From NCBI RefSeq assembly GCF_000026545.1, contig NC_011601.1: DNA of 64,000 nt; one strand, 5' to 3'. Of this stretch, positions 15,784 through 27,937 are shown piece after piece. The position numbers and the translations under genes were made by a program. Source of the DNA: Escherichia coli O127:H6 str. E2348/69 (GTDB lineage Bacteria > Pseudomonadota > Gammaproteobacteria > Enterobacterales > Enterobacteriaceae). Numbering within the stretch: position 1 is the stretch's first letter; every line of letters begins with the position of its first letter. Under the pieces are notes generated by a model. The model was not told the DNA's origin. It did no database searches and saw only the letters and a list, made by a program, of their open reading frames with translations.

Positions 15784-16431
15784 ATGTATCTTGATACCAG
15801 CAACGTACAGAGCCTGAAAGAAAAGCTGCTGTTATGCGCGGTTAATGAATTTGCCGAATATGGTTACGAAGGGGCCAGAGTCGATAATATCGTCAAGGCC
15901 GCGGGGTGCAGTAAACAGACGGTTTATCACCACTTTGGTAATAAAGAAAATTTATTTATCGAAGTACTGGAATATACCTGGAACGATATTCGACAAAAAG
16001 AAAAGGCCCTTGATTTCTCAGATCTTCCGCCACAGAAAGCCATTGAGAAAATAATCGATTTTACATGGGATTATTATATTTCTAATCCCTGGTTTTTAAA
16101 AATTGTGCATAGTGAAAATCAAAGTAAGGGTGTGCATTATGCAAAATCACAGCGTCTTTTAGAAATTAACCATGCGCACTTGCAGTTAATGGAATCCTTA
16201 TTGGATGAAGGGAAGAAACAAAATATTTTTAAGCCAGATATCGACCCATTGCAGGTGAATATTAATATTGCTGCGCTTGGGGGATATTATTTGATCAACC
16301 AGCATACGCTTGGCCTGGTTTATCACATCAGTATGGTTTCACCGCAGGCACTGGAAGCCAGACGTAAGGTCATCAAAGAGACAATCCTTAGCTGGCTTTT
16401 GGTTGACCCTTCATCTACCGCGCGCGAATAA
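15784..16431 (+). CDS. TetR/AcrR-family transcriptional regulator
   Basis: Internal ATG of ORF 15712-16431; N-terminal ...[44 protein letters not shown]... is a canonical TetR HTH. Confidence 0.8.
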
Positions 16432-17919: not shown

Positions 17920-19469
17920 CTGTCTCTTATACACAAATCCCCACCCGGGGATTTGTGATGTCTGTCAGTCTGCTTTAGGGGGACTCTTTCCATCCGGTAG
18001 TTTCCTTCCTCCCCGGCAGCGATTTTTTGAACTTTTTCCTCACCTGTTGATCTTCTCTTATATTTCATTTTCTTCGGGTCTGTTATGGTACTTTCTGATT
18101 GTTATTCATGGGCTAACGAGCAGTTTGGACATGCCCGTCTCGGTGATCCGCGTCGTACACGACGCCTTGTGTCACTGGCCTCTTCTCTCGCTCAGCATGC
18201 AGGTCTTTCTATTGTGAAATCATCCCAGTCCACTGCTCAGGTTGAAGGTGCGTACCGCCTGATACGTAACCCGTCTGTGTCCCCGCAAGCCATTGCCGAA
18301 GCCGGATTTACCGCCACTGTAAGGGCATGTGAGGCTCATCCGCTGCTCCTCGCGCTGGAAGACACCACCACCATTAACTTCAGTCACAGTACGGCATCTG
18401 ATGACCTGGGGAATACCACCACTAACCCGAAGACGCGCGGGCTGCTGGCTCACTCTGTCCTGATGTACGCCCCCGACAGCGCCCTGCCAGTCGGTCTTAT
18501 CGAACAGCAGCGCTGGAGTCGTGCCACGGACACCTACGGTGTTAAGCACCAGCGAAAAGAACGTCCCTATGAAGAAAAAGAAAGTTACCGCTGGCAGCAG
18601 GCTTCGGAGCGCATGGCCGAACGGCTGGGGGAGATACAGAAACGGGTAATCACTGTCTGTGACCGGGAAGCGGATATCTGGCATTACCTGCATTATAAAG
18701 TCAGCCACGGGCAGCGCTTCGTGGTGCGTGCAGCACAGAATCGCCGGCTGGAAGAAGCACCCGGCAAGCTCTTCGAACTGCCGGAAGTCCTGGCAACCGC
18801 GGGAAGCCACACGCTGAATGTGATGCAAAAAGGCGGGCGGGCAGCCCGCCAGGCCCGGATGTTCATCAGTTACAGCGAAGTCAGCATAAAAAATCCCGAC
18901 AACAGCGGCCAGGCGCTCCCGCTCACGTATGTCTGTTGCCGGGAGCAGGCAGAGGACGGCGCCTGCTGGCATCTGCTGACGTCAGAAAAAGTGGCGAGTG
19001 CCGCCGATGCGCGACGTATCGTCAGCCATTACGAGCGACGCTGGCTGATAGAGGAATACCACAAGGCGTGGAAAAGTGGTGGTACATGTGTGGAATCGCT
19101 GTGAATGCAGACCCGGGATAACCTCGAGCGCATGGTGGTTATCAAGGCGTTTATCGCGGTGCGGGTGCTGGGCCTGCGGCAGGGCGGTATCAGTGAAGAA
19201 ACACAAAATGACAGCTGTGAGAAAATACTGACGCCGACAGAGTGGAAACTGCTGTGGGTTAAGCTGGAAGGAAAACCGCTTCCGTCACAGATGCCGACAC
19301 TGAAATGGGCCTGTCTGAAACTGGCGAAACTGGGGCGATGGCATGACAGCAAACGCACCGGTCGCCCCGGTTGGGTAGTCATGTGGGATGGCTGGTTCAG
19401 ACTTCAGGATATGGTTGAGGGTTACCTGGTGATGAAGTCTCTTGATCAGGAGATCTGATCAAGAGACAG
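17920..19469 (+). mobile_element. IS50/Tn5-like insertion sequence (IS4 family) with diverged transposase
   Basis: Left end CTGTCTCTTATACACAAAT (2 mismatches to the Tn5 outside end as I recall it); right end is the exact reverse complement of the Tn5 inside end CTGTCTCTTGATCAGATCT; flanked by direct repeat cgaaccag; internal Tn5-Tnp-like ORF. Confidence 0.85.
18085..19458 (+). pseudogene. Tn5-like transposase interrupted by an in-frame TGA at 19102-19104 (ORFs 18085-19104 and 19105-19458, same frame)
   Basis: N-fragment LGDPRRTRRLV...EGAYRLIRNP...LALEDTT...CDREADI...RRWLIEEYHKAWKSG closely resembles Tn5 Tnp including the DDE positions; C-fragment DNLERMVV...AVRVLGLRQ... continues the alignment after the stop. 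Confidence 0.7.
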
Positions 19470-26460: not shown

Positions 26461-26649
26461 CAGGGACATCCTTTTATCATCGGGAATACGAAAGAAAAGG
26501 GAGAATAAACGTCTTACTTATAGAACAGTGAAGAATGCCACAATTTTACGCTTTGAAAATGATGACACTATCACAGTTGGCGCATTCATTAACGATAGGG
26601 TATAAGTAAAACAATAAGTTAACACCGCTCACAGAGACGAGGTGGAGAA

Positions 26650-27390
26650 ATGTTAGATCAAGTATGCCAGCTTGCACGGAATGCAGGCGATGCCATTATG
26701 CAGGTCTACGACGGGACGAAACCGATGGACGTCGTCAGCAAAGCGGACAATTCTCCGGTAACGGCAGCGGATATTGCCGCACATACCGTTATCATGGACG
26801 GTTTACGTACGCTGACACCGGATATTCCGGTCCTTTCTGAAGAAGATCCTCCCGGTTGGGAAGTCCGTCAGCACTGGCAGCGTTACTGGCTGGTAGACCC
26901 GCTGGATGGTACTAAAGAGTTTATTAAACGTAATGGCGAATTCACCGTTAACATTGCGCTCATCGACCACGGCAAACCGATTTTAGGTGTGGTGTATGCG
27001 CCGGTAATGAACGTAATGTACAGCGCGGCAGAAGGCAAAGCCTGGAAAGAAGAGTGCGGTGTGCGCAAGCAGATTCAGGTCCGCGATGCGCGCCCGCCGC
27101 TGGTGGTGATCAGCCGTTCCCATGCAGATGCGGAGCTGAAAGAGTATCTGCAACAGCTTGGCGAACATCAGACCACGTCCATCGGCTCTTCGCTGAAATT
27201 CTGCCTGGTGGCGGAAGGACAGGCGCAGCTGTACCCGCGTTTCGGGCCAACCAATATTTGGGATACCGCCGCTGGTCATGCTGTGGCTGCAGCTGCCGGA
27301 GCGCACGTTCACGACTGGCAGGGTAAACCGCTGGATTACACTCCGCGCGAGTCGTTCCTGAATCCGGGGTTCAGAGTGTCTATTTATTAA
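26650..27390 (+). CDS. cysQ: 3'(2'),5'-bisphosphate nucleotidase
   Basis: 246-aa product [22 protein letters not shown]... with [12 protein letters not shown] inositol-monophosphatase-family motif. Confidence 0.95.
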
Positions 27391-27937
27391 TTAATTTATG
27401 CAGCAGGTCCATCACTTGCTGCACCTCTTCCTGAGTAAGCGCCCCGTCTTTGGCCCATTGCACGCGACCGTCTTTATCCAGCACCACTACAGCAGAACTT
27501 TTTTCATCCAGCTGCCAGGCACCGCGTGCGACGCCATTGCTATCAACAATAAACTGCGACCAGGGATAAAGCTTTTTATTACTCTCCAGACTGCTGCGCA
27601 CAAACATCCCTGAACCCGGAATCGCGTCGTCGGTGTTAACAATGGTAGTGGTCTGGTAACGATCGTGCGGTAACTTCGCTGATTTAATCGCTTCAATCAG
27701 CGTCGCGTTTTTCTCTTTTGCAGAGGTGCGACCAGCAATATGTTGCAGTACTCGCACTTTTCCCACTAACTGCGCACTGTTCCAGGTTTTGTAGCTAAAC
27801 TGATCTTTATCAAGCACCAACTCGCCACGATCGGTGATGCCAATCGGCGGCACTCGCTGACCGGTTTCGAACTGATGTGCGGAAGCCATCATCGGCAACA
27901 GCAGGCAGGTGAGTGCCAGAATCTTGCGTAGGGTCAT
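27380..27937 (-). CDS. ytfJ: Periplasmic protein of unknown function
   Basis: ORF with signal peptide [20 protein letters not shown]; 3' end overlaps the cysQ 3' end by about 11 nt. Confidence 0.85.

Follow-up and report, generated by a model that had tools for sequence, protein, structure and literature searches.

Two questions are raised by the junction of cysQ and ytfJ in Escherichia coli O127:H6 str. E2348/69: whether the overlapping convergence of the two genes is an original arrangement or a loss relative to K-12, and how their transcripts end when no intergenic space is left between them. We addressed both in a 64,000-nt stretch of contig NC_011601.1 (hereafter, the window). A preliminary description of this DNA had reported convergent 3′ ends that overlap by about 11 nt, and direct reading of the sequence, the ORF list and the RefSeq annotation of EPEC E2348/69, to which the window shows 100% identity here, all agree with that report (Table 1), apart from one wrong letter in the overlap string as it had been quoted (position 27380 is c, not t), which is immaterial. 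The further statement that the overlap leaves no room for a terminator holds for the intergenic space, but a conserved hairpin (H2) begins 8 nt past the cysQ stop, within the coding sequence of ytfJ.

In the 50 kb of the window that was surveyed for this arrangement, convergent pairs with overlapping ends are not rare (2 of 10). A covariance-model search of positions 27340-27440 against Rfam (E<=1) matched no RNA family at the junction. Several other features of the window are of note. A full-length match to the ES239 sRNA (26461-26583, + strand; RF02756, 157 bits, E=3.7e-32, Rfam) lies in the spacer between cpdB and cysQ, a short distance ahead of the cysQ start codon at 26650. The genes for YtfB (17053-16415, - strand) and a TetR/AcrR-family regulator (15784-16431, + strand) are convergent in the E2348/69 RefSeq annotation, with a 17-nt overlap at 16415-16431, and the stretch between cycA and fklB contains an IS4-like ISEc13 transposase gene (about 18085-19458).

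Table 1. Features of the cysQ/ytfJ junction in the window, and occupants of the same site in other genomes. Positions refer to the window unless preceded by the handle of a locus in the comparison set.
Feature	Position	Strand	Description and basis
cysQ CDS	26650..27390	+	246 aa, 3'(2'),5'-bisphosphate nucleotidase; ORF list, RefSeq annotation, Pfam Inositol_P E=8.6e-52
cysQ 3′ end, ...GTG TCT ATT TAT TAA	stop TAA 27388-27390	+	
ytfJ CDS	27380..27937	-	185 aa, YtfJ_HI0045 family; ORF list, RefSeq, Pfam PF09695 E=1.5e-77, TIGR01626
ytfJ stop TAG	27382-27380	-	reads CTA at 27380-27382 on the + strand
Overlap of cysQ and ytfJ 3′ ends, 11 nt, CTATTTATTAA	27380..27390		direct reading, ORF list, RefSeq
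Unoccupied ytfI site, 4 nt	27391..27394		K-12 counterpart of 1225 nt (L001 3497-4721, ytfI and two hairpins); BLAST junctions
Hairpin H1, CUGAAUC-CGG-GGUUCAG	27358..27374	+	within the final codons of cysQ, ahead of the U-rich overlap; terminator-like scan match
Hairpin H2, UGCAGCAGGU-CCAUC-ACUUGCUGCA	27399..27423	+	starts 8 nt past the cysQ stop; in ytfJ codons 172-180
Candidate Rho loading/termination zone	27424..27623	+	C-rich, G-poor cysQ-sense RNA antisense to ytfJ; C/G ratio
Divergent ytfI	L005		78% identical to K-12; flanking genes 96-99%
Pentapeptide-repeat gene, Escherichia albertii	L007 4556-6059		385-aa AT-rich pentapeptide-repeat protein in place of ytfI
Pentapeptide-repeat gene, E. 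coli	L083 5149-6652		same gene in two E. coli (SCPM-O-B-7615, SCPM-O-B-9504); third natural E. coli allele
Radical-SAM/SPASM insert, Citrobacter youngae	L044 4559-6678		2.1 kb; radical-SAM/SPASM enzyme and 298-aa membrane protein
Peptidase gene, two Kluyvera species	L058, L061		peptidase-S11-like protein
Spacer, K. intermedia	L067		71 nt, no gene

The gene order in MG1655 is cpdB, cysQ, ytfI, ytfJ. The ytfI gene that the preliminary description had placed in K-12 is therefore present, and K-12 does not share the overlapping arrangement of the window. Comparison of the window with the K-12 locus (L001 in our comparison set) by BLAST gives two collinear blocks, with homology ending at the cysQ stop (27390, corresponding to L001 3496) and restarting at 27395 (L001 4722), so that the suspected indel difference proves to be a clean one, of 1225 nt versus 4 nt. 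The K-12 segment has a GC content of 0.35 and contains the orphan gene ytfI (312 aa) and two hairpins, the first immediately beyond the cysQ stop and the second past the end of ytfI. The last ytfJ codons specify ...HKLINK in the window and ...QKLLK in K-12, followed in each case by the stop.

No flanking direct repeat or target-site duplication, no terminal inverted repeats and no transposase were detected for the K-12 segment, and inspection of its flanks by eye gave just a degenerate 9-nt similarity (ATTTACTAA versus ATTATTTGA, with ATTTATTGA as the ancestral sequence), leaving a transposon- or IS-type insertion unsupported. YtfI itself has no match in Pfam, NCBIfam, PDB sequences or the phage set, and we treat as noise its sole PADLOC match, to Cas6b (E=8e-4, no passing stretch). 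Its ‘plasmid’ matches are large (0.66-4.9 Mb) E. coli records, and no relatives of ytfI outside Escherichia were found in the plasmid or phage sets.

The insertion itself has been described before. Higashi et al. (2016, PLoS Genet, S10 Fig; PMC4720273) presented ytfI as a K-12-specific inserted segment bound by H-NS, absent from strains SE11 and SE15, in which no H-NS binding is seen over cysQ and ytfJ. The locus and the polymorphism are the same as those studied here, and the window represents another ytfI-less strain. In the parts of that paper that deal with the locus, it serves as an example of H-NS spreading, and they do not take up the overlap of the two genes, which state is ancestral, how frequent the alleles are, other cargo, or H2. 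Because the ytfI insert is already published (PMC4720273), the overlap and the empty site are, in themselves, ordinary and known.

To place the two alleles in a wider context, one genome per species was scanned with YtfJ, yielding 80 Enterobacteriaceae loci, and both stop codons were located in each. Six of these species loci are non-overlapping and hold unrelated cargo at the exact cysQ/ytfJ spot (Table 1). The membrane protein encoded by the C. youngae insert has a Cys/Gly/Ser-rich terminal tail, (G/S)-Cys-rich and specified by 15-nt repeats, and this protein could form a peptide-maturation pair with the adjacent radical-SAM/SPASM enzyme. A hairpin of -18 to -25 kcal/mol is found 2-12 nt downstream of the cysQ stop in every insertion allele. 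That of C. youngae is a duplicate of H2, with 42 nt of the ytfJ 3′ end, H2 included, recurring as a direct repeat (95% identical) on either side of the insert, and that of K. intermedia is a degenerate H2 copy. The cysQ/ytfJ locus behaves as a multi-allelic cargo site. A separate rearrangement is seen in ETEC1738 (L082 3001-4294), where an IS1-mediated deletion has removed most of ytfI and the C-terminus of ytfJ; ytfJ is therefore a pseudogene in that strain.

Two hairpins in the window came into consideration as 3′-end signals. H1 is the sole scan match with a terminator-like U-tract pattern and is situated within cysQ, upstream of its stop; acting there, it would therefore yield a stop-less mRNA. 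Synonymous recoding gives H1 a weak signal (z of -0.65 and -1.0, the strongest control segment, in cysQ, having -0.8), and in the ytfJ sense it reaches just -3.6 kcal/mol. We rejected H1 as a conserved terminator, given that its registers differ between Escherichia and the other genera, that it displays no covariation, that it is broken in 21 of 79 loci, and that its recoding signal is no stronger than that of one control segment. The role of H1 is doubtful.

H2 has a 10-bp GC-rich stem with a fold energy of -14.6 kcal/mol (z=-4.8). The stem is directly followed by CCUCUUCC and not by a U-rich tract (>=5 U in 8 nt), and the terminator scan does not call H2 terminator-like. H2 thus has the stem-loop of an intrinsic (Rho-independent) terminator and lacks the U-tract.

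The codons that make up the H2 stem are nearly invariant. Specifically, across 82 loci, V172 is GTG in 79 of 82, Q173 is CAG in 81 of 81, A177 is GCC in 58 of 61, L178 is CTG or TTG (77 and 5 loci), and L179 is CTG in 81 of 82. Codon entropy is 0-0.53 for the stem positions V172, Q173, Q174, A177, L178 and L179 and 1.0-2.1 for the loop and flanks, and L178 and L179 have the second and third lowest entropies among 31 conserved Leu columns. The loop codons and the adjacent His, Lys and Leu codons vary freely at synonymous positions. CAG and CTG are preferred codons and complementary to each other, so part of H2 comes free with the QQ...LL peptide, and the mean of recoded sequences is still -9.4 kcal/mol. 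The real H2 reaches -18 kcal/mol in the same control, with a z of about -2 in at least 90% of the 82 loci, and it is the only segment that stands out: seven control segments in ytfJ and six in cysQ have z near 0, the strongest being -0.8 (one cysQ segment).

The pairing of H2 is also well maintained. In the alignment, its nine core pairs are about 99% paired and six of them are invariant, and pairs 69-76 (alignment numbering) have no non-wobble mismatch in any of 73 overlap alleles. One pair is GC in 67 cases, AU in 3 and GU in 3, and covariation in H2 rests on one pair and probably on a single lineage. Disruptive mutations occur only in insertion alleles, as a G.G mismatch in one Kluyvera species (L058) and a U.U mismatch in the other (L061); this loosening does not by itself identify the strand on which function was lost. 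Judged by codon usage and recoding, H2 is a CDS-embedded hairpin under strong synonymous-site constraint.

One-sided changes bear on which strand H2 serves. Changes that leave a G.U pair in cysQ-sense RNA but A.C in ytfJ-sense RNA are found in E. coli, Kosakonia (L030) and S. arizonae (L012). At its loop-closing pair, L066 alone has the reverse, a change tolerated in the ytfJ sense only, so that the asymmetry favours the cysQ sense by only 3 to 1. H2 of the window is fully paired as cysQ-sense RNA and mismatched as ytfJ-sense RNA. Its position 8 nt past the cysQ stop is where a 3′ hairpin of cysQ would naturally be expected. In the ytfJ sense H2 is positioned 17 nt ahead of the ytfJ stop, and transcripts ended there would therefore be stop-less. 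The strand evidence leans to the cysQ sense and is not decisive, and H2 probably serves the convergent neighbour, cysQ.

An unlikely alternative is that H2 is unrelated to cysQ and owes its conservation to the VQQV..ALLH peptide with its CAG/CTG codons, to the structure of the ytfJ mRNA, or to a protein-bound DNA palindrome. This would agree with the family-wide fold energy, which is alike in the two senses (-18.2 versus -17.9 kcal/mol), with the -9.4 kcal/mol retained on recoding, with the L066 change, and with the intact H2 of K-12, where cysQ is 1.2 kb off. However, each ribosome translating ytfJ would unwind a hairpin that lies ahead of the stop, and any role of that hairpin in termination or in blocking exonucleases would leave the mRNA without a stop. 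Codon bias leaves the fixed GTG of V172 and GCC of A177 unexplained, other Val and Ala columns being free. The three lineages with changes tolerated in the cysQ sense only, the one-sided pairing of H2 in the window, and the hairpin retained beside the cysQ stop in insertion alleles also argue against it.

The reading that we put forward is a dual use of this segment, in which nine ytfJ codons would be near-invariant throughout Enterobacteriaceae because the opposite strand forms a hairpin at the 3′ end of cysQ, freezing them at synonymous positions. The site would recurrently take unrelated cargo, namely ytfI, the pentapeptide-repeat protein, the radical-SAM/SPASM pair and the peptidase-S11-like gene, and insertions would survive only with a hairpin by the cysQ stop kept or recreated, sometimes through duplication of H2. 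We hold the chances of this proposal to be evenly balanced.

How H2 might act is suggested by the composition of the RNA beyond it. With no intergenic space available, the 3′-end signals would lie within the coding sequence of the neighbour. Downstream of H2, cysQ-sense RNA has a C/G ratio of 2.11 when 100 nt are counted and of 1.84 when 200 nt are, both above the 95th percentile (1.44) of 200-nt windows within the window. Beyond the cysQ stop, untranslated RNA rich in C and poor in G extends for over 50 nt, a rut-like property characteristic of Rho-dependent termination. RNA of the ytfJ sense past the ytfJ stop has an unremarkable C/G ratio of 1.1-1.2, and ytfJ transcripts have no hairpin comparable to H2 after their stop. 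In the mechanism that we propose, cysQ transcripts would run 8 nt beyond the stop into H2, transcription would proceed into the C-rich, untranslated stretch antisense to ytfJ and be terminated there by Rho, and 3′ exonucleases would trim the cysQ RNA back to H2. Transcripts of ytfJ would read antisense into cysQ and be ended by Rho. With these ends, the two mRNAs would overlap as antisense RNAs by at least about 45-65 nt. Taken alone, this mechanism is, in our estimate, as easily wrong as right.

Published 3′ ends of K-12 allow a comparison by analogy. In the Term-seq data of Adams et al. (2021, PMC7815308), the dominant ‘primary’ 3′ end of cysQ shifts between 4437540 and 4437542 with the growth condition. 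With the last base of the K-12 cysQ stop at 4437495 and that of the next hairpin's extended stem at 4437540, this 3′ end falls at the foot of the hairpin. Rho termination regions are reported at 4437751 on the + strand (Rho score 3.6) and at 4438394 on the - strand (score 7.0), and no curated 3′ end is listed for ytfJ (PMC7815308). The first of these regions lies about 210 nt beyond the cysQ 3′ end, and the second 314 nt past the ytfJ stop. K-12 is an insertion allele with a different downstream context. Its data fit a cysQ transcript that Rho terminates downstream and that is then trimmed to a hairpin, and a ytfJ transcript ended by Rho. Rho-dependent ends trimmed to a stem-loop (Dar & Sorek 2018, as cited in PMC7815308) share with the window a U-tract-less hairpin near the stop and C-rich, G-poor RNA downstream; they differ in that an intergenic 3′ UTR carries these elements there, and the coding sequence of a convergent neighbour carries the hairpin and presumed rut in the window.

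A possible alternative or complement to Rho is the collision of converging polymerases, whereby H2 would pause RNA polymerase and head-on and trailing collisions would release both transcripts without Rho or a U-tract. Terminators of this kind, lacking intrinsic features and needing a nascent RNA stem-loop in the overlap, have been reported for hundreds of E. coli convergent pairs (bioRxiv 10.1101/2022.10.23.513370). H2, as a U-tract-less hairpin at a convergent boundary, resembles the overlapping bidirectional terminators (Ju et al. 2019; Wang et al. 2022 preprint) in the convergent pair, the boundary stem-loop and the absence of canonical intrinsic features. Unlike them, it is contained wholly in the coding sequence of one gene, upstream of that gene's stop, so that a ytfJ-sense polymerase freed just after H2 would still be 17 nt short of the ytfJ stop. 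Moreover, much of the release is ascribed in that model (bioRxiv 10.1101/2022.10.23.513370) to a trailing polymerase hitting the head-on pair, which we take to imply that frequent transcription is required, and the Rho regions on both strands in K-12 (PMC7815308) indicate involvement of Rho at this locus. We regard collision at H2 as rather improbable.

The species survey shows which arrangement is the original one. The stops of cysQ and ytfJ overlap in 74 of the 80 loci, in registers of -11 nt (41 loci), -7 nt (27) and -4 nt (6). Represented among these loci are Escherichia (including E. whittamii), Citrobacter, Salmonella arizonae, Klebsiella, Raoultella, Enterobacter, Kosakonia and Kluyvera, among others, which makes the overlap the ancestral state and K-12 the carrier of an insertion. 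In the set of 5426 complete E. coli genomes, the contiguous junction (0-1 mismatch) is found in 3793 (~70%), the ytfI segment in 1623 (~30%), and the pentapeptide gene in 2. The arrangement of the window is thus the ancestral and the majority state in E. coli. The window almost certainly preserves an ancestral, compact junction from which nothing was lost, with K-12 and about 30% of E. coli carrying an insertion.

The ytfI cassette has diverged more than its surroundings, with identities of 78% between K-12 and L005 and 80-100% within E. coli, compared with 96-99% for the cysQ and ytfJ flanks. The ytfI allele keeps the ancestral-type ytfJ end TTGAGCAAC, and the empty allele of E. coli has the derived form TTAATTAAT. 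Together, the divergence and the two forms of the ytfJ end suggest an old polymorphism or introgression. The converse history, in which K-12 would have the ancestral arrangement and the overlap would be a scar left when the lineage of the window deleted ytfI, is highly improbable: the TTAATTAAT junction of the E. coli empty allele is indeed locally derived, differing at 4 of 7 nt from the TTGAGCAAC of other Escherichia species that the ytfJ end of K-12 retains, but the overlap recurs with conserved registers in many genera, ytfI is AT-rich and described as an H-NS-bound, strain-specific insert (PMC4720273) with no relatives outside Escherichia found in the plasmid or phage sets, and a stepwise path through L006 (TTAAGCAAT) together with the outgroup overlaps led us to reject a deletion scar in the TTAATTAA junction.

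The combination of an ancestral overlap, insertion of ytfI, and a 3′-end mechanism based on H2 and Rho is the best explanation of the locus that we can offer, and we consider it, as a whole, reasonably probable.

The overlap and the published insertion matter little in themselves, and the annotation of the window is already correct. K-12 is the exception at cysQ/ytfJ, and the reference genome should not be taken as ancestral. The point worth carrying forward, of modest practical importance, is H2, a synonymously constrained hairpin embedded in ytfJ. The product of cysQ is the pAp (3'(2'),5'-bisphosphate) nucleotidase, and if H2 is a 3′-end element of cysQ, ‘silent’ recoding or C-terminal tagging of ytfJ could alter cysQ expression. 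The natural insertion alleles make it possible to test by comparison what such a junction must retain in order to function. If the proposal is true, synonymous sites at tightly packed convergent gene ends could no longer be regarded as neutral.
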